Assembly (NCBI GenBank): GCA_964511435.1
Contig: CAZEFH010000001.1
Coordinates: 9,346 to 73,345 of the forward strand
DNA from: an uncultured Candidatus Saccharibacteria bacterium
GTDB taxonomy: Bacteria > Patescibacteriota > CPR2 > UBA1875 > CAIMLA01
DNA length: 64,000 bases
Direction: 5' to 3'
Shown here: one piece after another, positions 6,952 to 58,886 of the stretch
How the letters are laid out: each line of letters starts with the position of its first letter
Position numbering within the stretch: the first letter of the stretch is position 1
Translations under genes and position numbers: made by a program
The notes under the pieces: model-generated
The model's database searches: none
What the model was told of the DNA's origin: nothing
What the model saw: the letters and a program-made list of their open reading frames with translations, nothing else

Positions 6952-8835
6952 TTACTCCAGAACAGCTTTTATTCGCCTTACTCCAGAGGAGCTGGACTCC
7001 TCCTTTTTGATGCGGAATTTACCAAGTTCACTGGTATTCTTTACGTGCGGCCCACCACATATCTCTTTCGAGAATGCATCTGTTGAATATAGGTCTCCAC
7101 CGATAGTATATACTTTTACCTTTTCACCATATTTAGAATCAAAAATACCTGTAGCCCCATTACCCTTTGCGTCCTCTACTGTCGTAATAGTTTCAAACAC
7201 TGGTAAATGAGAATTAATTTTGTCATTCACCATTTCTTCGACAGCTTGTTTTTGAACGTCAGTTAGCTTGTCTGGATGAGAAAAATCAAAACGAATTCTC
7301 TCTGATGTGATATTCGCACCACGCTGGCTAACATGTGGCCCTAGAATTCGACGAAGCGCCTCAAGCATCAAATGAGCGGCAGTGTGATAGCGAACTGTTT
7401 GCTCTGAAGTATCCCCTAGGCCGCCTTTGAATTTCTTTTCAGCGCCTTTACGTGATAAATTTTGGTGTTCGGAAAATTCTTTATCAAATTCTGCTTTTAT
7501 TTCGTTAATCTTGTCCGCATCAAATTTGGGGTCTTTAGATAATTCTTCAATCGTCATTTCGTATGGAAACCCATAAGTTTGAAACATATGAAATGCTAAG
7601 CTTTTCTCAAATTTATTGCCCGATAACGATTGCTCACGTCCCTTTTCAAATACCTTTAACCCATTCTCAAGCGTTTTATTAAACTTCTCTTCTTCCTTTT
7701 CCAACGCTGCATAAATAAATTGTTCATTTTCCTGAAGAAGCGGATATACTTTGCCCATTTTCGCGACCACTTCACGGGCAACAGATGAAGTAAATAACCC
7801 GGATATCTCCAAGTTCCGTCCATGACGAATTGCCCGGCGAATCAATCTACGAACTATATAGCCGCGATCGATATTTGAGGGCTCCACGCCTTCGGCAAGC
7901 ACAAAAGTAGCGGCTCTCAAATGGTCAGCTACTATCCTCATCGATTTCATGGTTTCCAGCCAGCAATCAGGCATAGTCTCATAGCCCAAGTCTCCAGGTG
8001 TAAATTCATATTTCTTTTTTGAAAGCTCTTCAATTTTGCCAATGATTGGCTGGAAAAGGTCAGTTTCAAACACAGAGCTTTTCTTTTGAGCAAACATCAA
8101 TTGTCTTTCTAATCCAATACCAACATCTACATTCTTCTGCTCTAGCTTCTCAAATTTACCTTCAGCATTCTTAAAGTACTCCATGAAGACATTGTTACCA
8201 ATCTCCACATACTTATCACAGTCACATGCAGGATCACAACTAGGACTACATTTTGGCAATCCAGTATCGATAAACATCTCTGTATCTGGCCCGCATGGTC
8301 CAGTCTCTGCCGCTGGTCCCCACCAGTTCTCTTTTTTGTCATATTTATAGATTCTATCTGCCGGAATTCCGATCTCATCTTTCCAGGTATTGTATGACTC
8401 TTCGTCAAACGGAGCGTCGTCATCACCTGCAAAAACTGAGATAGATATCTTGTCTTTATCAAAACCCAACACTTTCGTATAAAAATCAAACGTGTAGCGG
8501 ATCGATTCCTTCTTAAAATAATCACCGAGTGACCAATACCCAAGCATTTCAAAGAATGTCAGGTGACAGGTATCTCCGACTTCATCAATGTCTTTAGTCC
8601 TGAGACAAATCTGAGAATCAACTAGTCTCTTGCCAAGTGGGTGCCTCTCGCCCATCAAATATGGTACTAAAGGGTGCATACCGGCTGTCGTAAATAGTAC
8701 TGACGGGTCATTCTCCGGCACTACGGGATATGAAGGAATCGGCGCGTGGCCACTTTCTTTCATAAAATCAATAAATTTTTGTCTTAGTTGTTCTGAAGTC
8801 ATATTATATTTTTTACGAATTTCACTTATTGTCAT
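6952..8835 (-). CDS. alaS: Alanine--tRNA ligase, short form (catalytic plus editing domains, no C-Ala domain)
   Basis: LFTTAGMHPLVPY class-II AlaRS core; editing-domain HTAAHLMLEAL...CGGPHV; only 627 aa versus about 870 for full-length bacterial AlaRS. Confidence 0.9.
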   Translation of the reverse strand: MTISEIRKKYNMTSEQLRQKFIDFMKESGHAPIPSYPVVPENDPSVLFTTAGMHPLVPYLMGERHPLGKRLVDSQICLRTKDIDEVGDTCHLTFFEMLGYWSLGDYFKKESIRYTFDFYTKVLGFDKDKISISVFAGDDDAPFDEESYNTWKDEIGIPADRIYKYDKKENWWGPAAETGPCGPDTEMFIDTGLPKCSPSCDPACDCDKYVEIGNNVFMEYFKNAEGKFEKLEQKNVDVGIGLERQLMFAQKKSSVFETDLFQPIIGKIEELSKKKYEFTPGDLGYETMPDCWLETMKSMRIVADHLRAATFVLAEGVEPSNIDRGYIVRRLIRRAIRHGRNLEISGLFTSSVAREVVAKMGKVYPLLQENEQFIYAALEKEEEKFNKTLENGLKVFEKGREQSLSGNKFEKSLAFHMFQTYGFPYEMTIEELSKDPKFDADKINEIKAEFDKEFSEHQNLSRKGAEKKFKGGLGDTSEQTVRYHTAAHLMLEALRRILGPHVSQRGANITSERIRFDFSHPDKLTDVQKQAVEEMVNDKINSHLPVFETITTVEDAKGNGATGIFDSKYGEKVKVYTIGGDLYSTDAFSKEICGGPHVKNTSELGKFRIKKEESSSSGVRRIKAVLE

Positions 8836-9084
8836 AAGGGTATTTTAGCAGTAAAACGCTCTTATCTCAATACACGAAAGTCCTTTCGGACGGGCGCCCT
8901 TAGGCGCCCGTCCGGCCTAGACCACTCGGGACCAGCGCTTCCGAGCAGCAAGGTTCACGCAGGCGCGCCTGAAGCGCCGCCTCTGATCACCCGACAAACC
9001 ACCGATGTTGTCTCGATAGAACTTCTTGAGTTCCTTCCGAGTCCGAACCATTCGAAGACGAAACCACAGCATACAGCTGCCTCC

Positions 9085-9555
9085 CTAGTCGATGAGCCCC
9101 TTTTCTTGGAGCTCCCTTACTTCTTCCATGGAATAGCGAATGCTCGGCTCAAACTCAGCAATTCGAGCTAGAAGCTGTTGCTTTCCAGGATATCTAGACG
9201 GAACAGACTTGAGAGTCTTACGAAGCCGAATGACTTCATTTCGTGCCTCAAGCCCCTCCAGTCGCCAAATCAGAACAAAGCACTCGCGAACGTACTGGAT
9301 TCTCTGGTGATAAGCCGCTTCTCGCTTCCGACGCTTTGCCTCCTCCGGGTCTGCCTTGACGATAGCTTGCGGACCCAGAACCTCGATCCGTGATTGCTGA
9401 TCACGTTGACGTATGGCCGTAGCAACTCTCTGTGACTCTTCTCGACTATACCACGGGAAGTCGTTACTCACTCCCGTAAGGGTGCGCGTCCCCATATGAG
9501 GGAAGCAGTGAAACCCTCTTGTGCCGGCTCCGATGGTCGTTGAAACATCGATCAT
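9085..9555 (-). CDS. Hypothetical protein (156 aa) in GC-rich island
   Basis: Intact ORF with strong RBS (GGTAAGGAGGGAGC-ATG) and promoter-like TCGACA-N15-TATAAA upstream; markedly higher G+C than flanking genes; basic/charged composition; no family recognised. Confidence 0.55.
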   Translation of the reverse strand: MIDVSTTIGAGTRGFHCFPHMGTRTLTGVSNDFPWYSREESQRVATAIRQRDQQSRIEVLGPQAIVKADPEEAKRRKREAAYHQRIQYVRECFVLIWRLEGLEARNEVIRLRKTLKSVPSRYPGKQQLLARIAEFEPSIRYSMEEVRELQEKGLID

Positions 9556-9747
9556 TAGCTTCCCTCCTTACCAGACTCGCCTGCTGACTTGTCTCACGGG
9601 CATTTTATAGCAAAATCGACGTCTTGTCGATGCTTTTATAAGGACGAAGGCCACGCGCGCTAATGATGCACGGTGGCCTTCAGTTTGCGGCATAGCCGCT
9701 ACCTACAAACGATGTCTTTCCTGACATAGAACGGGTGCGCCCCCTCA

Positions 9748-9993
9748 CTAGTTGAAGTACAGAAGCTTCGCGCGTTCGATCGTACGGCGTTCCTCCGCGG
9801 CAGAGGCGAAGAGATTCTTCATCGCGCTTCTGGCATTGCGGAGCTCTGCTGCGGTGCCCTCGTTCTGGACCAGTAGCCGAGTCCGCTCCGCCTTGAGCAA
9901 GCGGATGAGCGCCTTCGCCTGAGCTGGAGTGACCCCCATCTCCCGAACCAGAGTATCATCGACAAGCTCCTGGACGCTCGACATCGTTCTCAC
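9748..9993 (-). CDS. Hypothetical small protein (81 aa) in GC-rich island, possible DNA-binding/antitoxin-like
   Basis: Intact ORF with GGGAGGTGAG RBS; preceded by a perfect 9-bp inverted repeat (10033-10056); helical, Arg/Ala-rich; no confident family. Confidence 0.5.
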   Translation of the reverse strand: MRTMSSVQELVDDTLVREMGVTPAQAKALIRLLKAERTRLLVQNEGTAAELRNARSAMKNLFASAAEERRTIERAKLLYFN

Positions 9994-10103
9994 CTCCCTT
10001 CCAGGGAAGTCGTAGGTACGCCGATATGCAAACGGATCCGCATTCTAGCGGATCCGAGTAAACTACATATCTGACGCCTATATTGTAACACTTCGGTCAA
10101 TGG

Positions 10104-11255
10104 TTATATAGTAGACACGATGATTCCCCCACCGAGTAGTTCTTCGTCTTGGTAGAAAACAACTGATTGTCCAGAAGTGATGGCTTTTTGCGGCTCAGTA
10201 AATTTAACTGTGATACTATTTGTTTTCTTTTTGGTAATTTCACACTCCGCAAGTTCAGCTTGATATCTTATTTTTGCCTTACAGTGGAAAGGAAATTCAA
10301 CTGGATTTACCCAATGCGGATTTTCAACTATAAGTCCTGAACCATAAAGCTCGTCTTCAGGACCGATAATTACTTCGTTTTTATCGACATTCAGTCCTGT
10401 AACATACATTACTTCAAAAAATCCCCCACCGAGACCCTTCCTTTGCCCAATTGTGTAGAATGGAAGGCCATTATGTCGACCCAAAATATTCCCCACCGAG
10501 TCGACTATGTTGCCCGGTTTTGCCTTCACTTTCCCAGTCAGAAACTCTTGAGTGGTCGTCATTACAAAGCAAATGTCCTGACTTTCGGTTTTCTGTGCTG
10601 TCTTGAGACTATATTTTGCCGCCAGTTTTCTGGTTTCGGTCTTTTCGAGCTCTCCGATTGGAAATTCGACACGTGCCAGCTGCTCCTGCGTTAGGTTGTA
10701 AAGGAAATAGGACTGGTCTTTTGTTCGATCAAGACCTCGCAGTAATTTGTATCTGGTAGTTGGTAGTTCGCCCCTTTCTGCGTCATTCCTGGTCGTACCC
10801 GTCCGCTCCGAAGCCTTTGGCGAAGGCGGAAGCCAGGAATCCATTCCCTTTTCTTGGACCCCAGCCTGTGATGGGGTGACGGGGATGGAAGAAACCCTTA
10901 CATAATGTCCGGTCACCAGCTTATCGGCACCTATTTTCTGGGCTTCTTCCAGCAACCGTCCAAACTTAATCAACCGATTACAGCGTACACACGGGTTGGG
11001 CGTCATACCAGCTTCGTATTCCGCGATAAAATCATCAATTATCTCCTTTTGGAACTGCTTTCTTAATTCAACAATAAAATGTTTGATACCAAGCTGTTCG
11101 CAAACGTCCCTCGCATCATTTATTACATCTTCATTTCCCAAGAGGTCCATAGTCAAACCGATGACACCATCCTTGCCATATTTCTCAACCATCAGCGCGG
11201 CAGCGACCGATGAGTCGACTCCTCCACTCATAGCAACTGCTATCTTACAATTCAT
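10104..11255 (-). CDS. mnmA: tRNA-specific 2-thiouridylase MnmA (carries a roughly 45-aa GC-rich in-frame insertion)
   Basis: PP-loop SGGVDSS, catalytic CVRCN, GHYVRV...LLRGLDRTKDQSYFLY; insertion SSIPVTPSQAGVQEKGMDSWLPPSPKASERTGTTRNDAERGELPTT lies between conserved blocks. Confidence 0.85.
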   Translation of the reverse strand: MNCKIAVAMSGGVDSSVAAALMVEKYGKDGVIGLTMDLLGNEDVINDARDVCEQLGIKHFIVELRKQFQKEIIDDFIAEYEAGMTPNPCVRCNRLIKFGRLLEEAQKIGADKLVTGHYVRVSSIPVTPSQAGVQEKGMDSWLPPSPKASERTGTTRNDAERGELPTTRYKLLRGLDRTKDQSYFLYNLTQEQLARVEFPIGELEKTETRKLAAKYSLKTAQKTESQDICFVMTTTQEFLTGKVKAKPGNIVDSVGNILGRHNGLPFYTIGQRKGLGGGFFEVMYVTGLNVDKNEVIIGPEDELYGSGLIVENPHWVNPVEFPFHCKAKIRYQAELAECEITKKKTNSITVKFTEPQKAITSGQSVVFYQDEELLGGGIIVSTI

Positions 11256-13283: not shown

Positions 13284-13538
13284 CTACTTAAGGCGCCCCA
13301 CCATGCACGAGGCAAATGACTTCGCCTTTTTGACTAGACTTTGAGCTTCCTCACTACCAGCCCTTGGATAACCAAGCCTAGTGAGAACCTCCTCGGCGAC
13401 TTTTACATCACCCGTAAATTCAACCGTCTGACAGCTGGGATCTACTTTCACGTCTGTGAGACCATTTTTCAATAGTGCATCTTCAATGCTCTTGGCACAG
13501 CCGCCACACTTAATGTTGACTACTTCTATCTTTGACAT
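13284..13538 (-). CDS. Heavy-metal-associated (HMA) domain protein, CopZ-like with CGGC metal site
   Basis: VVNIKCGGCAKSIEDAL ferredoxin-like HMA fold; AGGAGG RBS. Confidence 0.75.
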   Translation of the reverse strand: MSKIEVVNIKCGGCAKSIEDALLKNGLTDVKVDPSCQTVEFTGDVKVAEEVLTRLGYPRAGSEEAQSLVKKAKSFASCMVGRLK

Positions 13539-13555
13539 TCCTGCCTCCTATATTA

Positions 13556-13660
13556 TTAGCAGCCACAGCCGCATGAACATTCTGATCCACAAGTACACTC
13601 TGCACCACTGGCACAGCCACACTCGCAAGTACATTTGCTTCCGCAATCACACTTTGACAT
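13556..13660 (-). CDS. Cysteine-rich metallothionein-like peptide (34 aa, 13 Cys), unannotated sORF
   Basis: Minus-strand ATG at about 13660 preceded by AAAGGAG RBS (5 nt spacer); translation MSKCDCGSKCTCECGCASGAECTCGSECSCGCGC*; below the 60-aa cut-off of the ORF track. Coordinates may be off by 1 nt. Confidence 0.6.
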   Translation of the reverse strand: MSKCDCGSKCTCECGCASGAECTCGSECSCGCGC

Positions 13661-23692: not shown

Positions 23693-24904
23693 TTAGGCTC
23701 CTGAGCAGCCGCCCCAGGCTCCCCAACCATTCTGACTGACACGGAGGGCTGTCGCATATATCTGTGCGTTGACGTCATACATATTCGAGGCTGGATGTCC
23801 AGCCCTGGCTGCCCATGAGTATAAACTGCCATCCCACTGGAATAGGCCATAATATCCATATGGACTCTGCGAGTAAACATTAGCATGGCTCTCGCACATC
23901 ATCACGCGGGCCATCTTGCCAGCGTCTATTCCATACTGATTTGATGCCGCAACAATAATGGGCCATAAATCATCGATGCCATAAGGCTTCACACCAATCT
24001 CAATAACCTTGTTTTGTGGAGAAGCCAAGACTTCGCTAGCCGTTACTTCACGTGAAACCTCGACGCCATTATGATAAACAATGTGGACCGATTGCCTCTT
24101 ACTACCATTTACACCACCCTGAGTCACCCTGCTCTGACCCTGATACATCTCGTAGTTGTCTTGATTGATGGTCTGATAAACAATGGTCACTGTCTCCTCG
24201 ATATCAGCATAGTTCACCCTAGTCACAATAATATGGCCGCTTGAAGGTGCTGGCGCAAGCCTGTCAGGGTCAGTAGAGTCGTTCTGGTTCAGAGTAATAC
24301 CACCGTCACGAAGGACATTAGTCACTGTCTGAGCCCAGCTATGAACAATAACTTCCTTGTCATCAACGGACACTGTGTAGACAGGGGCTCGCTTGATAGT
24401 AATCATCTGTCCGGCCATGTTTTCGGTCGCGGGATCAAGAATGAGCTCCTTCGTGATGATATCTGCCTTATCATAATTAACCTTGAGCTGACTTAGAATA
24501 CCCGGAATGTCAGTATAGGCCGACTGGCCAACCCAAGACTGTCCATTATCATTAATGAGAACTGGGACGGCCGGAATAAGCTTCGCACTGATGTCTTCAC
24601 CAACAAGCGGTGTATCAAGGTCTGGAGACGTAATATCATTCTTCGCGAGTATTATCCCCTGTTTCTCGAGCGCATTACCTAGTGTATTCTCGGTGGTAGT
24701 GAATGTGGTTGTTTTGGCTCCTGCAGTATAGCTCACCTTGGTAGTTATAGTTGGCACCACACTTTCGCCCTTCACTTGCTGTGAGAGGCAAGCAAGGAGT
24801 AGAAAAGACAAACAAAAAACGACTAAAAAGCCGTTTTTGAGGCGTAAATAATGGTTATGTAGTCTATCTATAACAAAGTTTATCTTCAAAATAAGTGGTC
24901 GCAT
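23693..24904 (-). CDS. Secreted RpfB-like protein: G5/DUF348-type repeats plus C-terminal resuscitation-promoting-factor (Rpf) lysozyme-like domain
   Basis: Signal/TM anchor, then C-terminus MCESHANVYSQSPYGYYGLFQWDGSLYSW...QNGWGAWGGCSGA parallels the Rpf domain consensus (CExGGNW...NGYYGGLQF...W...GWGAW..C). Confidence 0.65.
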   Translation of the reverse strand: MRPLILKINFVIDRLHNHYLRLKNGFLVVFCLSFLLLACLSQQVKGESVVPTITTKVSYTAGAKTTTFTTTENTLGNALEKQGIILAKNDITSPDLDTPLVGEDISAKLIPAVPVLINDNGQSWVGQSAYTDIPGILSQLKVNYDKADIITKELILDPATENMAGQMITIKRAPVYTVSVDDKEVIVHSWAQTVTNVLRDGGITLNQNDSTDPDRLAPAPSSGHIIVTRVNYADIEETVTIVYQTINQDNYEMYQGQSRVTQGGVNGSKRQSVHIVYHNGVEVSREVTASEVLASPQNKVIEIGVKPYGIDDLWPIIVAASNQYGIDAGKMARVMMCESHANVYSQSPYGYYGLFQWDGSLYSWAARAGHPASNMYDVNAQIYATALRVSQNGWGAWGGCSGA

Positions 24905-33820: not shown

Positions 33821-34296
33821 TAAAGTGCACTTATCCCTTTAATTTTCCAGGCTTCATCCTCTTTCACCAAAAGGAACTGCCGTCCGTACAAATCCTCTCC
33901 CACCTGAACATTCATAGAAACATCCATGTCCTCTCCGTCTGCCACAACCTCTGATTCACCGATTGTTACATTCGAGAGATCACTCCCAAGTTTCAAGGTA
34001 TTCTTAATGTCCATGTTTTGGACCGAGGCAGCAAGGTATAGCTTCGCATTTACAGTGTTATCTGACTTTACTTCTGAAAGGAAAGTACGGACAACTTCTT
34101 CAGGTGTAAACCCGTTGATATCCTTTATCGCCCTTATGTCCTCAACCTGTTTCCTAACCGACGTAATTTTGTTAGCCACTTCGCTATTTTTGGCTTGAAA
34201 AACACTGTTTTGAAAAATCACTACGGCAGCAACAGAGACCACCAGTAGTATGGCCATGCAAATTGCTGTAACTAGCGGTAACCGATCTTTCAACAT
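33820..34296 (-). CDS. Hypothetical membrane-anchored protein
   Basis: N-terminal TM, about 130-aa soluble domain; stop/start overlap with neighbours suggests an operon. Confidence 0.45.
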   Translation of the reverse strand: MLKDRLPLVTAICMAILLVVSVAAVVIFQNSVFQAKNSEVANKITSVRKQVEDIRAIKDINGFTPEEVVRTFLSEVKSDNTVNAKLYLAASVQNMDIKNTLKLGSDLSNVTIGESEVVADGEDMDVSMNVQVGEDLYGRQFLLVKEDEAWKIKGISAL

Positions 34297-37659: not shown

Positions 37660-38952
37660 TTATCTTAGTTCGTTTTCAATTTCTAACAGTCTATTATATT
37701 TCGCTAACCGCTCACCGCGTGCTGGCGCCCCAGACTTAATCTGTCCCACTCCCGTTGCCACCGCAAGATCAGCAATTAAAGTATCACTAGTCTCACCACT
37801 ACGATGCGAAATCATACAATGATATCCGTTTGTAGTTGCCAGTTTTATTGCAGAAAGAGTCTCGCTGATGGTCCCTATTTGATTGACCTTAATAAGGACT
37901 GCATTTGCAACTTTCTGGTCAATTCCTTTTTGAATCCGCTCTGGGTTTGTCACAAAAAGATCATCACCAACCAGCTGGACCTTACTACCAATGCGATCAG
38001 TGAGCTGCTGCCAGCCTTCCCAATCATCCTCACTAAGACCATCTTCGATAGAAATTACTGGGTAACTTGCAATAATTTCCTTGTACCAGCTACCAAGCTG
38101 CTGTGCACTAAGACCAATTCCCTCGCTCGCAAGGATGTATTTCCCATCCTTATCTGGGTGATAGAGCTCACTAGCAGCGACATCGAGTGCGATAGCAACA
38201 TCTTTCCCTGGTTTATATCCAGCTGCAGTAATCGCTTCTACGAGTAGGTCCAGTGACTTCGTATTTGATTCTAGATTCGGCGCAAAACCTCCTTCATCGC
38301 CCAGGCCAGTAGATAATCCACGACTAGATAACAAACCCTTCAAAGCATGGTAAACTTCGGTTGCAATTCGTAGATTTTCGGCAACGGTATCTTTTTGTGG
38401 CACAATCATCGACTCTTGGATATCTATATTGTTGTCTGCATGTTTGCCGCCGTTTAAAACATTGAAAAACATCTTTGGCAGAACATAGTTGCTTTTCACC
38501 CCTAGTTCAGTCTGATATGAACCGTCGTTCTCATAAAGTGTCATCAAATATTTATATAGTGGCATTTCTAGTGCCTTTGCTGCTGCCACTGCGACCGCTC
38601 CTGAGACGCCAAGAATAGCATTCGCACCTAGTTTGCTTTTATTCTTAGTGCCATCAGCCTGAATCATAGCCTTATCGATTTCACTTTGGTTCAGGGGGTT
38701 CGCCTCAAGAAGCAAATCACGAATAGGCCCATTCACATTTTGGATAGCCTTCTCTACTCCCTGACCACCATATGCCTTTTTACCATCACGAAGTTCGAGT
38801 GCTTCATGAACCCCGGTAGAAGCGCCGCTTGGAACAGAAAAAATACCCGTAAAATCATCAACCGTTACACTCACTTGTAGGGTTGGGTTTCCACGAGAAT
38901 CAAGAATCTGGATTGCAGTAACATCTTTTATCTTCATAGCAATATTATTCAC
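37660..38952 (-). CDS. eno: Enolase
   Basis: [16 protein letters not shown]..., SHRSGETED-like [21 protein letters not shown]. Confidence 0.95.
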
Positions 38953-54718: not shown

Positions 54719-56137
54719 TTACTCTGAACCAAATAAGTCCTTCGCGATTGTCAGGAGAGATTCCTTTGAGGTGATTTTGGAACCGATAGGCAACTTTAGA
54801 CTCCCCTCATAACCATAGTTTGCAGTGAGTGAAAAACTATAGCTAGTAAGAACGGGCAAATTTTGAGTCAATCCTTCTTCTTCATCGATATTCTCTAGTC
54901 TGGTATTATTCTGCATCGCCATTGTCTTTGCCGTACCGCCAAGACTAATGACTCGTCTGCTTTTAGGTGAAACTATAAAGCTCAAGCTTAAGACTTCTTC
55001 GTCCTGAATAAGCTTATCTTCTTCTCCTGTGATTATCTTTGATATACTTCTTAGACTGTCGGCGTTCAAAACCAGGCGATATTTTTCGCACTTAACACCG
55101 TCAATATCTTCCTGGCCCTCAAATCTGATATTATTCGCTATTTCATTATTACTTGCTGGATTTGTAATAATCCCCTTGAGACCCTCGAGGTCAGAGAAGA
55201 TAAAGTCCCAGAAACCAGAAATATTACTGTACTGTGCAAATTTCCTTACACTAGTATCACCGTTTCTTAGAAACGCCGAGTCCTTAGTTTTTAAATACAA
55301 AAGGCCAAAGGTACCCGTATCACCACTTGCTTCTAACTTTGCATTTTTGCTTGAATCAACATCAAGTACAAAGTTACCGCTTTGTCCGTTGCCAGTAAAC
55401 TCAAATTTGTACTCAGACTGTTCTAGGTTGCTAATATTTTTGAGAGCATCAGAAAGTAGCTGTGCCCGCTGATTTTTACCATAAGAAATATAGCCGTAGT
55501 AGCCACCAACACCAAGAACTAGCACAATTGCGGCTGCAAAAACATATTTTAGATAACTAAATATTGGCTGCGAGGCCTTCTTCCTAGTAGGCTCACCAGG
55601 ACCAGAAACCCCACTAACAACTGGGTTTTTTATGGTACTGCCGTCCACAGCAACTCTCGGTGCTGGCTGTGGCGACTCAGGATAAAGCGGGTCCGGTACC
55701 ATTGCTGGGTTAGGAGTAGCCGCTACTTGTGGCATCGGGGAATAAGTTCTTTCCGGTGGCTCAAAAGTTTGAGGGCTAATCTCCGGCGCTGGTTCTGAAA
55801 CTTGGGCACTTGTCTCATTGGCAGAAACCGCTGATTCTGACATGAACATATCAGTCGGCTCGGCGTGATATGTCGATGCTACCTGCCCCAAGGCCTCACT
55901 GTTATTCGTCTGCGCCTGATAGATTTGGTTTGTTCCAATATCAAATTCAGCATTTTCTTCTCTAGGCGAAATTTGGTCGGAAAATGAAGGCACAGATACA
56001 GCTGGTGAGCTCTCTGTCTGGGCTTCTGCTTTCCCTCCGATATTGATGTCCTCAGGACGTACAATCGGTGGCATACTTGTGTCTTCGGGCTGACCACTAG
56101 TAACGGCATCAAGCTGATTGTCTAGATTATCTCCCAT
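54719..56137 (-). CDS. Hypothetical bitopic protein: Pro-rich N-terminal region, one TM, about 270-aa extracytoplasmic domain
   Basis: TM helix FAAAIVLVLGVGGYYGYI; Pro/Ser-rich N-terminus; lies between ABC exporter and acyl-CoA ligase genes. Confidence 0.5.
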   Translation of the reverse strand: MGDNLDNQLDAVTSGQPEDTSMPPIVRPEDINIGGKAEAQTESSPAVSVPSFSDQISPREENAEFDIGTNQIYQAQTNNSEALGQVASTYHAEPTDMFMSESAVSANETSAQVSEPAPEISPQTFEPPERTYSPMPQVAATPNPAMVPDPLYPESPQPAPRVAVDGSTIKNPVVSGVSGPGEPTRKKASQPIFSYLKYVFAAAIVLVLGVGGYYGYISYGKNQRAQLLSDALKNISNLEQSEYKFEFTGNGQSGNFVLDVDSSKNAKLEASGDTGTFGLLYLKTKDSAFLRNGDTSVRKFAQYSNISGFWDFIFSDLEGLKGIITNPASNNEIANNIRFEGQEDIDGVKCEKYRLVLNADSLRSISKIITGEEDKLIQDEEVLSLSFIVSPKSRRVISLGGTAKTMAMQNNTRLENIDEEEGLTQNLPVLTSYSFSLTANYGYEGSLKLPIGSKITSKESLLTIAKDLFGSE

Positions 56138-56983: not shown

Positions 56984-57872
56984 AAAACTTCATGAACACA
57001 TCTTCGAGATTCGCATGTGTTACTTCGATATCAATCAACTTATGTTTGGAAACTGCGCCCATAACCTGATTAATGTCACCGCTCGCGGTGATTACAAGAC
57101 CGTCAGAAACTTCCTCTACTGAATCGACGCCCGCAAGTTCGAACTCTTTCTTTGTAAATTTATCTGCGAAACGTACCTCGATACGATGAAGTTTCTTGTC
57201 ACCTAAGTCTTTGATATTCTCTACCGCTGCCAGCTTGCCCTCTTTAATAATGGCGACTCTATCACAAAGCTTTTCTACCTCTGGTAGATTATGAGAGGAA
57301 ATAAAGATTGTCGTTCCCTTTTTCTTCATATCCAGAAGAATTTCGTAGATTGCATTCTGAAGCAAGGGGTCGAGACCGACTGTCGGCTCATCCATAATCA
57401 CTACCTTCGGACTATTCATCAGGGCGAGAATAAGACCAAGCTTCTGCTTGTTACCACTAGAGAGGTGTCGAAACTTCGCCAGTGGGTTGAAGTCAAGCTT
57501 CTTTATCAGTTCCTTCACACTATCCGAATTACCACGAATACTTTCGAAAAAGTGAATATGTTCCCAGCCTGTCCAGTTATCGTATAGTTTTACATTGCCT
57601 GGCAGATAGCCGATATGTCTCTTTTCTTTGATACCACTCTCAAAAAGCTTCTCTCCCAGAACTGTAACAGTTCCGCTGGTGGGTTGATTGAAACCCATCA
57701 GACAGCGAATTGTAGTTGTTTTTCCGGCTCCATTCGGTCCTAGAAAGCCAAATATTTCACCTTCTTTAATTTCGAAGCTGATGCCATCTACGGCGTGAAG
57801 CTTACCAAACTGTTTTTTGAGGTCTCGTACTTCAATAACGTTTTTCATATTTACCATTTTAGGCCTGAGCAA
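56970..57872 (-). CDS. ABC transporter ATP-binding protein
   Basis: Walker A GPNGAGKTT, signature LSSGNKQKLGL, Walker B VVIMDEPTVGLD; true start probably one of the internal Mets (MVNMKNVIEV). Confidence 0.9.
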   Translation of the reverse strand: MLRPKMVNMKNVIEVRDLKKQFGKLHAVDGISFEIKEGEIFGFLGPNGAGKTTTIRCLMGFNQPTSGTVTVLGEKLFESGIKEKRHIGYLPGNVKLYDNWTGWEHIHFFESIRGNSDSVKELIKKLDFNPLAKFRHLSSGNKQKLGLILALMNSPKVVIMDEPTVGLDPLLQNAIYEILLDMKKKGTTIFISSHNLPEVEKLCDRVAIIKEGKLAAVENIKDLGDKKLHRIEVRFADKFTKKEFELAGVDSVEEVSDGLVITASGDINQVMGAVSKHKLIDIEVTHANLEDVFMKFYERC

Positions 57873-57887
57873 ATATTTTGTCCATAA

Positions 57888-58405
57888 TCAAAAATGACCC
57901 TATGGGTCATGAGTTAGTAAGGTTAACGCGGGGAGATCGCGACGGTGTCGGGCAGCAAACCCAACCAGTTCTTCGTCGCGATCTCCCACGAAATCCGCAT
58001 GCGCCCCTTCCTCGAGTATGGGGTCGCGCCTGTCGCGGGTGGTTTCCAACCAATGGAGTCAGGAGCGCTATTGCGACTGGCTCGGAAGGCCTTATAGCCA
58101 CCACTTAAACGGCAAACATGCAGATCTTGCGTCACGGGAGTGACTAGAGCTTTGCTTCAACTAGGCGACTTCGTCTCATCAGGCTCACCTGACGAGCTAC
58201 CCCGTCCCTTACGTTTCGCTGTCTCCAATCCCGTCCCGTATCTCACAGCAGTTTCGCTCTTGGCGGTTGCTCACAATCCTCTTTACGAGGACGCCTCAGA
58301 CCATGAATCGTCTGGACAGTGTAAGCTATTAAGGTTTCACCCCCGCGGTAGGCTATTCGCTGCTGTTAGAATCTAGTTGTCAAACTGTCGTCTTAGACGA
58401 CAATG
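57888..58405 (-). ncRNA. Candidate large structured non-coding RNA or long regulatory leader (class unknown), GC-rich
   Basis: Minus-strand consensus promoter (TTGACA 58435-58440, 17-nt spacer, TATAAT 58412-58417) and intrinsic terminator (stem ATGACCC/GGGTCAT 57895-57911 followed by a T-run on the minus strand). The region is much more G+C-rich than flanks, full of long stems (e.g. 13-bp GGGAGATCGCGACG/CGTCGCGATCTCCC), and carries only R/P-rich pseudo-ORFs. Confidence 0.5.
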
Positions 58406-58411
58406 TTCAAG

Positions 58412-58440
58412 ATTATACACGAATATCGTATATTTGTCAA
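58412..58440 (-). promoter_or_regulatory. Sigma70 consensus promoter (minus strand) driving the GC-rich RNA / ABC operon
   Basis: Reverse complement reads TTGACA-aatatacgatattcgtg-TATAAT (17-nt spacer). Confidence 0.6.
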
Positions 58441-58452
58441 CACTTTTTTTAT

Positions 58453-58480
58453 TTGACACTGTCTACTCACAGTGTAAAAT
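58453..58480 (+). promoter_or_regulatory. Sigma70-like promoter for the receiver-domain gene, with a palindrome in the spacer
   Basis: TTGACA (58453-58458) - 16 nt - TAAAAT (58475-58480); spacer contains CACTGTCTACTCACAGTG inverted repeat; AGGAG RBS before the ATG at 58497. Confidence 0.55.
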
Positions 58481-58496
58481 GAAATTAGGAGATATT

Positions 58497-58886
58497 ATGG
58501 CAATCAAAGTTCTACTCGCAGAAGACGACATTCAGCTCGTCGATATGTATAGCCGCAAGTTTGCCCTGGACGGCTTCGAAGTCCGCCTCGCTGAAGATGG
58601 ACAGAAGGCAATCGACTTTCTGAAAGAGGGCTATGTACCCGATGTAGCTATACTTGACGTGATGATGCCAATGGTTGACGGCCTACAAGTACTTGCCTAT
58701 ATCAAGGACCAAAAGGAACTCGCTGACGTAATTGTCATTATGCTTACAAACCTCTCTGACGAAAAAACAGCTGAAAGAATCTACGAGCTTGGCGCCACTG
58801 AGTACTTAGTGAAAGCAGAGCTTACTCCCCTAGAAGTATCGGCCAAGGTGAAGGAATTAATCTCGTATTACAAAAAGGATAAATAA
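58497..58886 (+). CDS. Single-domain response regulator (CheY-like receiver only)
   Basis: VLLAEDDIQLVDMY...DVAILDVMMPMVDGLQVL...LTNLSDEK...EYLVKA; start set at the Met with RBS (58497) rather than the track start 58377. Confidence 0.8.
   Translation: MAIKVLLAEDDIQLVDMYSRKFALDGFEVRLAEDGQKAIDFLKEGYVPDVAILDVMMPMVDGLQVLAYIKDQKELADVIVIMLTNLSDEKTAERIYELGATEYLVKAELTPLEVSAKVKELISYYKKDK

Follow-up and report, generated by a model that had tools for sequence, protein, structure and literature searches.

Introduction

Genomes of Candidatus Saccharibacteria are tiny and densely coding, and a GC-rich stretch in such a genome that contains no recognizable gene raises the question of what it could be. The stretch considered here (57885-58440) lies in a contiguous 64-kb piece of DNA, referred to as the window throughout, between the gene of an ABC-2 ATPase on the minus strand and the gene of a 129-aa CheY-like response regulator on the plus strand (ATG at 58497). 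Homologues of the ATPase identify the host as a Candidatus Saccharibacteria bacterium of the Patescibacteria or Candidate Phyla Radiation (CPR), the nearest other lineage being 78% identical in this protein. The original prediction, made by reading the sequence alone, had described the stretch as a heavily base-paired non-coding segment and a candidate for a large structured RNA, either an independent RNA or a very long leader of the ABC operon.

We read the stretch as an orphan, independently transcribed, structured non-coding RNA (ncRNA) gene, which is the best of the readings considered, with a probability of roughly 0.45. The reading is based on the consensus promoter and terminator, the absence of any coding trace, a top-ranked and strand-specific predicted fold, and a high G+C content without an open reading frame (ORF). 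We favour an RNA that serves neither as an mRNA nor in the cis-regulation of its neighbours.

A self-contained unit on the minus strand

The G+C content of the stretch is 0.52-0.59 over 57900-58399, as compared with 0.38-0.45 in the flanks, and its mean of 0.547 stands against 0.444 for the entire window. This level is not unique, as the region 8890-10040 is equally GC-rich. A second, independent copy in the Logan assembly of the run ERR3839025 is identical to the window sequence, which argues that the stretch is not an assembler artefact.

On the minus strand, the promoter TTGACA-17-TATAAT (58440..58412) matches the sigma-70 consensus in 12 of 12 positions, and the promoter scan found it to be the sole such site on both strands of the window. 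Four other sites reach 11/12: one each before the response-regulator gene and a protein gene that ends at 24904, and two upstream of tRNA-Pro and tRNA-Glu. At the opposite end, the intrinsic terminator ATGACCC-ata-GGGTCAT followed by TTTTTGATTAT (57910..57894) forms a 7-bp hairpin of moderate strength (-9.1 kcal/mol). Both signals, including the textbook quality claimed for the promoter, were confirmed. From the standard spacing between the -10 hexamer and the start site, the RNA would begin at about 58404-58407, and the predicted transcript extends on the minus strand from ~58405 to ~57890, or ~515 nt.

To judge by these signals, 57885-58440 is a self-contained, presumably transcribed unit on the minus strand (Table 1). 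A promoter and a terminator of its own on one strand and no coding capacity are the sequence-level marks of an independent RNA gene, and the tests of G+C, signals, ORFs and periodicity bear out the description of a GC-rich non-coding stretch with these elements. Only 12 bp, the A/T tract ATAAAAAAAGTG (58441-58452), separate the -35 box of the RNA promoter from that of the response-regulator promoter, the two boxes being back to back, and the response regulator may be influenced in its expression by the strong promoter that was inserted.

Table 1. Positions of the features of the locus in the window and of the equivalent slot in relatives (L numbers denote relatives' loci).
Feature	Position	Strand	Remarks
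-35 hexamer TTGACA of RNA promoter	58435..58440	minus	consensus match
-10 hexamer TATAAT of RNA promoter, 17-nt spacer	58412..58417	minus	consensus match
A-rich tract	58441-58452		precedes RNA -35; shared back to back with response-regulator promoter
5'-terminal hairpin, 9 bp, AUUGUCGUC/GACGACAGU	58384..58404	minus	predicted; pair probabilities 0.7-0.99
Domain I, multi-branch, closed by ACAGCAG/CUGCUGU	58241..58370	minus	predicted; minimum free energy -47.3 vs antisense -39.9 kcal/mol; inverted repeat
Domain II, long irregular hairpin, 38 pairs	58133..58240	minus	predicted; minimum free energy -45.5 vs antisense -29.0 kcal/mol
Domain III, closed by GAUCUGCAU/AUGCGGAUU	57989..58132	minus	ensemble prediction; interior poorly defined in ensemble
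Domain IV, 57-nt hairpin, 14-bp perfect stem plus 7-bp distal stem	57931..57987	minus	predicted; inverted repeat 100% complementary
Intrinsic terminator, 7-bp stem, 3-nt loop, then UUUUUGAUUAU	57889..57910	minus	signal scan
ABC operon promoter TGGACA-17-TAAAAT (57884..57856) and apparently leaderless ATG 57848	57846..57884	minus	context, outside RNA; directly after terminator
Response-regulator promoter TTGACA-16-TAAAAT, ribosome-binding site and ATG 58497	58453..58499	plus	context; divergent from RNA promoter
Slot with non-coding stretch	window only	minus	~556 bp including promoter and terminator
Slot with orphan protein cassette	L002 3332-3898, L003 3298-3894, L039 1-441, probably upstream of L040	same orientation as stretch	own strong promoter and terminator
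Slot empty	L004/L005, L044		125-133 bp between the two genes

Absence of coding potential

The longest ORFs of the stretch encode 76-78 aa, and none exceeds 78 aa. Its period-3 signal-to-noise ratio (SNR) of 1.17 corresponds to no three-base periodicity; among the controls, neighbouring genes as well as a protein gene that relatives carry at this locus reach 10-19, whereas the small orphan genes in the 8890-10040 island give 1.9-4.3. A signal resembling elevated G+C at third codon positions (GC3) near the 3' end (57890-58070) was reached by 237 of 2000 shuffles, and the family-wise p of ~0.12 is not significant. None of six ORFs had a Pfam match above the gathering score: five had no match at all, and the two sub-threshold ones of the sixth (E 0.028 and 0.1) fell well short of those scores. 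The view that the ORFs are Arg/Pro-rich nonsense and that none is plausible therefore stands, the translations being Arg/Pro/Trp-rich, at most 78 aa long and without periodicity.

On the plus strand, frame 0 is nearly open over 57927-58376, with 56 codons, a TAG at 58095-58097 and a further 92 codons (~149 codons with a single stop). Such openness is within chance for a sequence of 55% G+C read in six frames. The 149-aa frame has no relative among 5.8 billion proteins. When the first 56 aa of the frame were compared by HMMER with 1.84 billion representatives, the only matches were three spurious ones (P0122-P0124), predicted proteins translated from long eukaryotic tandem repeats and unrelated to the stretch. 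Two further frames gave nothing against plasmids by tblastn.

Could the transcript nevertheless be the mRNA of a small protein? The candidates would be a minus-strand ORF ending at 57923, read either as 70 aa from GTG 58135 or as 25 aa from an ATG at ~58003, and a 50-aa plus-strand ORF (57945-58097). The stop of the minus-strand ORF lies ~13 nt before the terminator, a layout as in the protein cassette of relatives, and the purine-rich GAGGAAGGGG precedes the 25-aa version. However, no canonical ribosome-binding site occurs at the right spacing, and none of the minus-strand ORFs has one like those of the orphan genes in the 8890-10040 island, each of which carries a GGAGG-type site ~7 nt before its ATG. 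Furthermore, G+C is distributed over the codon positions in an atypical way, no significant periodicity is seen, the compositions are nonsense-like, and neither a Pfam match above the gathering score nor a real database homologue exists. The candidate minus-strand ORF is also buried in the 14-bp hairpin of domain IV, and the plus-strand ORF is without a promoter. We consider the small-protein explanation very unlikely.

A predicted fold beyond chance on the promoter strand

Folding of the sense RNA (516-521 nt) gave a minimum free energy (MFE) of -204.6 kcal/mol, with z = -5.3 to -5.35 relative to dinucleotide-preserving shuffles; the antisense strand gave z = -3.2. Among controls of equal length, ordinary coding DNA had z between 0.0 and -0.3, and GC-rich coding islands, taken from this genome and from relatives, had -1.5 to -3.4. 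When 638 windows of 200 nt were scanned on both strands, with z-scores based on only 20 shuffles per window, the stretch occupied ranks 1 (58091-58290, z -5.07) and 3 (57891-58090, z -4.67), both above the window containing tRNA-Glu. The rank-1 window has z -5.07 in the sense direction as opposed to -1.23 on the plus strand. The stretch thus folds beyond chance and does so specifically on the presumed transcribed strand, as a structured ncRNA would, and the strand asymmetry of the fold agrees with the orientation of the promoter. The claim of heavy base pairing was well founded.

The predicted ensemble arranges the RNA as a 5' hairpin, four locally closed domains and the terminator, with most helices at pair probabilities of 0.7-0.99. 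Domain II is the most strand-specific part of the fold, and its difference between sense and antisense is expected if G-U pairs matter. It also holds the second copy of a repeated motif, AGCGAAAC...GGGACGGG, together with the GGGACGGG half of the first copy, of which the AGCGAAAC half lies in domain I.

Two pairings had been singled out by eye. The perfect stem GGGAGATCGCGACG/CGTCGCGATCTCCC is real, albeit with 14 bp instead of the 13 bp stated. For the long-range pairing, complementarity is present between 57924-57933 and 58341-58350 (10 nt, 90%), but forcing this pair costs ~16 kcal/mol relative to the MFE. A global closing helix between RNA positions 56-65 and 473-482, 16 kcal/mol above the MFE, is accordingly not adopted in the predicted fold.

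Positions 58110-58124, within the closing helix of domain III, are perfectly complementary over 15 nt to 38435-38449, at ~codons 168-172 of the enolase mRNA (minus-strand gene, 37660-38952). Chance alone would give ~0.03-0.06 matches of this kind, and the site is internal to the enolase gene; the complementarity is probably a coincidence.

Comparison with known RNA families

At gathering scores, Rfam 15 (4227 families) found only tRNAs in the entire window, and the region 57750-58550 searched at E<=10 with lax filters yielded only five chance-level matches of 8-22 bits. One of these, to beta_tmRNA (8.3 bits), covers the promoter only. No match to RNase P RNA (RF00010/RF00011) was found by cmscan in either search, and the covariance models of OLE, GOLLD, ROOL, raiA, HEARO, 6S and signal recognition particle (SRP) RNA in Rfam gave nothing beyond chance level. 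The original prediction had left the RNA without a known class, and this assessment holds after the comparison with Rfam that it had suggested.

It had also noted local resemblance to RNase P J11/12-P12 and to the 5' end of transfer-messenger RNA (tmRNA), which found no support in the covariance models. The P4 pseudoknot of RNase P is formed in E. coli M1 RNA by the strands GAGGAAAGUCCGGGC and ACAGAACCCGGCUUA. With up to three mismatches allowed, neither is in the stretch, and the sole match in the window, at 34078, is at chance level. ARAGORN detected no tmRNA, standard or permuted, and the pattern of a T-arm (GGUUCGAnUCC) plus a CCA 3' end matched true tRNAs only, so that the tRNA-like 3' end of a tmRNA is also missing.

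A highly divergent housekeeping RNA (RNase P RNA, tmRNA, SRP or 6S RNA) that escapes the models is therefore exceedingly improbable. The stretch shares with RNase P RNA and tmRNA the size and G+C contrast typical of stable RNAs, a strong promoter and a handful of short words rich in purines, of which GGGUGAAA and AAGAGCG resemble RNase P J11/12; moreover, none of the four RNAs was found elsewhere in the 64 kb. However, none of the 4227 families matched beyond chance even under the lax settings, and P4, a tRNA-like domain and the tag reading frame are all absent, with regard to tmRNA (RF00023) as well as to its permuted forms. Conservation would be expected of such an RNA, whereas the closest relatives are without the sequence at this locus and have nothing similar nearby.

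Large ncRNAs of unknown function, such as OLE, GOLLD, ROOL, raiA and smtA-type candidates, have been found as long GC-rich intergenic regions by the GC-IGR/DIMPL approach (PMC11109978, PMC8723152). The predicted RNA resembles them in its length of several hundred nucleotides, its GC-richness within an AT-rich genome, its freedom from ORFs, its own promoter and terminator and its multi-domain predicted fold, and like them it is too long for a riboswitch. Unlike those classes, which rest on many covarying homologues, it is a singleton with no Rfam 15 match, and its slot is variable, being taken up by a protein gene in sister lineages. The literature searched contains no description of a large RNA from Saccharibacteria, and a GC-IGR survey of 50 genomes does not mention the phylum. 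A preprint on the TM7x transcriptome reports short intergenic regions without currently validated small RNAs (10.1101/2022.03.25.485537).

The ABC operon appears to have its own leaderless promoter

The promoter of the ABC operon begins directly after the terminator of the stretch. Its -10 hexamer lies 7 nt before ATG 57848 in the window, and the same promoter stands with its -10 hexamer 6 nt before the ATG in five relatives' loci (L002, L003, L004, L039 and L040). The ATPases of relatives align from residue 4-5 of the query ATPase, that is, from the Met encoded at 57848. ATG 57848 is thus most likely the start of the ATPase, and the annotated starts, 57857 and 57872, probably lie upstream of the true one; the alignments and the -10 spacing disfavour 57872, which had been taken as the operon start. 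With the -10 hexamer only 6-7 nt before the ATG, the mRNA of the operon appears to be leaderless, which would leave no room for a riboswitch.

This layout bears directly on the proposal that the stretch is a very long cis-acting leader, an attenuator or riboswitch governing read-through into the ABC-2 transporter operon. As in known leaders of this kind, a structured RNA with an intrinsic terminator would lie immediately upstream of and co-directional with a transporter operon, and the moderate terminator makes some read-through plausible. A leader, however, sits between the promoter and the start codon of the gene that it regulates, whereas here the ABC promoter is downstream of the terminator. 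The promoter layout is also conserved in the five loci named above, and in L004 and L044 this promoter serves the operon behind an empty slot, with only the response-regulator promoter upstream of it. Relatives that have kept the operon do not have the stretch. In addition, no riboswitch family of Rfam matched, and ~515 nt is far longer than known riboswitch leaders. The leader alternative of the original prediction consequently failed, and we regard it as highly improbable.

The gene after the ABC permease (54719-56137) encodes an orphan protein without a Pfam domain, whose length varies between 472, 551, 562, 638 and 552 aa at this position in the window, L002, L003, L004 and L039. The N-terminal half of the window copy is Pro/Ser/Glu-rich and of low complexity. 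This variability suggests that the whole neighbourhood evolves fast.

A variable slot in related genomes

Only the nearest clade retains the order of response regulator, slot and ABC operon; in Saccharimonas genomes that are more distant, other genes lie upstream. Within the clade, the slot is empty, filled with a protein cassette or, in the window, filled with the non-coding stretch (Table 1). As judged from these loci, the stretch is a lineage-specific insertion of ~556 bp (~58440 to 57885) in a variable slot between two divergent promoters. The repeats at its borders, direct and inverted, are not arranged as a target-site duplication with terminal inverted repeats, which speaks against transposon-like ends. 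The stretch contains no tandem-repeat arrays (TIGR, type III antitoxin, CRISPR). No part of it is repeated elsewhere in the window, which excluded the template of a diversity-generating retroelement with a matching variable repeat.

The protein of the cassette is a genuine coding gene and a fast-evolving orphan: it has 188-198 aa, ~60% G+C, GC3 of 0.76-0.80 and a period-3 SNR of 10-19, and its members share only 29-57% identity in genomes whose ATPases are each 77-78% identical to that of the window. The motif DLDHP and a C-terminal YGI(P/K)Y are conserved. A word-index search of 5.8 billion proteins, Pfam and PHROGs revealed no relative, and a phage origin of the family was rejected, as neither viral contigs nor PHROGs gave a match.

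The cassette and the stretch are alike in position, orientation, strong promoter and terminator of their own, a G+C content 10-15 points above the genome and the lack of known relatives. The cassette is coding, whereas the stretch is free of ORFs and of periodicity and is not detectably similar to it. Between stretch and cassette, tblastn gave no signal, a frameshift-tolerant alignment gave z of 1.3 and -0.4 (positive control 33), a three-member hidden Markov model (HMM) of the slot family found nothing in six frames, and DNA Smith-Waterman scores were not above those of shuffles. We thus rejected the idea that the stretch is a pseudogene of the ~190-aa slot protein, there being neither DNA or protein similarity nor residual codon periodicity.

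No homologue of the stretch was found in any collection searched: blastn against phage and plasmid collections, nhmmer and blastn against 44 loci, and a covariance model of domain II were all negative, the profile searches spanning ~246 kb from Saccharibacteria relatives in the surroundings of the orthologous ABC gene. Two scans of viral contigs with 18- and 20-mers, which like all pattern scans need exact words, gave no match, and a metagenome scan for AGCGAAAC..GGGACGGG..AGCGAAAC gave a single chance match (L038) in an unrelated simple repeat of 70% G+C. In eight relatives' loci, Rfam identified the GC-rich ORF-free patches as tRNAs. According to the original prediction itself, a lack of conservation in relatives would count against the candidate; the closest relatives are entirely without the sequence, and the notion of a conserved RNA class has to be given up.

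Structured RNA gene or functionless cargo

Several of these results weigh against a functional RNA gene. The slot of the nearest relatives is empty or carries an unrelated protein cassette, which implies that the RNA is dispensable for the clade. As no homologue was found, conservation and covariation provide no evidence for it, and the two copies seen, in the window and in ERR3839025, are identical and hence show no variation between them. Strong promoters are a property of the slot, since the protein cassette of L003 has an 11/12 promoter as read from its sequence. Finally, other GC-rich island windows also reach fold z-scores of -4.8 and -4.2, so that the fold score of the stretch, although extreme, does not stand entirely apart.

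These points lead to the main rival, in which the stretch is functionless cargo, namely foreign or decayed GC-rich DNA in an insertion hot-spot that is transcribed through the remaining cassette promoter. Either a cassette may have lost its gene and left this remnant, or a fragment may have been acquired from a donor rich in G+C, for example an actinobacterial host; in both cases the RNA would have no selected structure or role. The variability of the slot (empty in L004/L005 and L044, with the ~190-aa cassette in L002, L003 and L039), the dispensability of the stretch in relatives, its orphan status in every search, the further GC-rich orphan island at 8890-10040, the negative fold z-scores that GC-rich islands generally give and the nearly open plus-strand frame (~149 codons, single stop) all fit this explanation. 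On the other hand, the stretch has no DNA or protein similarity to the cassette of relatives, as the alignment z-scores and the negative HMM and Smith-Waterman comparisons indicate, and no codon periodicity is left anywhere, although a recent pseudogene of a GC3-rich gene should show some. An old relic, in turn, should have drifted toward the AT-rich composition of intergenic DNA, and the fold excess is specific to the promoter strand. Cargo without function is the most serious of the rivals, even if we hold it to be less likely than the RNA gene.

The structured RNA gene remains our preferred reading, in favour of which also stands that ~55% G+C has been kept without an ORF where the intergenic DNA of the genome is AT-rich. 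We infer its transcription, selection on its fold, action in trans and protein binding, and propose the following course. A ~556-bp segment would have inserted into the slot between the promoters of the response regulator and the ABC-2 operon, and its consensus sigma-70 promoter would drive an RNA of ~515 nt ending at the terminator just upstream of the ABC operon promoter. The RNA would fold into the 5' hairpin, the four local domains in series and the terminator hairpin, and would act in trans as a stable molecule, its most likely role being that of a protein-binding scaffold or sponge, possibly via the duplicated AGCGAAAC...GGGACGGG.

If the RNA is real, it is an unclassified, lineage-specific bacterial ncRNA; a claim to a class needs homologues, and it is therefore no demonstrable new class. 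It is rather unlikely that with this stretch a first member has come to light of a new class of highly expressed, structured RNAs of ~500 nt in Saccharibacteria and other CPR bacteria, carried as promoter-RNA-terminator cassettes in a hypervariable slot. Were this the case, a single accessory locus of an epibiotic bacterium with a reduced genome would carry either the RNA or the orphan protein as its cargo, and the two might have analogous roles, for instance in host interaction or defence.

In a compact genome, it would be costly to add an ncRNA of 515 nt under the best promoter of the 64 kb, and for that reason the RNA would probably be meaningful. The turnover of accessory genes in CPR bacteria would also be seen from an unusual angle if RNA cargo in one lineage and orphan protein cargo in sister lineages shared a single hot-spot. 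The main value of the stretch is that of a single-lineage candidate with exact promoter, ends and domains, which makes it a well-defined target.

Other GC-rich features of the window

The second GC-rich island (8890-10040, minus strand, 0.55-0.60 G+C) lies between alaS (6952-8835) and mnmA (10104-11255). Besides GC-rich hairpins, it contains three small orphan genes (77, 156 and 51 aa), all of which have a canonical GGAGG-type ribosome-binding site ~7 nt before the ATG. These genes have no Pfam match, and one weak PHROG match was obtained (phrog_20158, E 1e-3). The z-scores of its 200-nt windows (-4.8 and -4.2) are among the lowest in the entire window.

The screen for ORF-poor DNA also flagged 13290-13660 on the minus strand as GC-rich. 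This region comprises two tiny tandem genes followed by a strong terminator. The first encodes a Cys-rich peptide of 34 aa resembling metallothionein (MSKCDCGSKCTCECGCASGAECTCGSECSCGCGC), and the second a protein of ~84 aa with a GCGGC-type metal-binding motif (MSKIEVVNIKCGGCAKS...).

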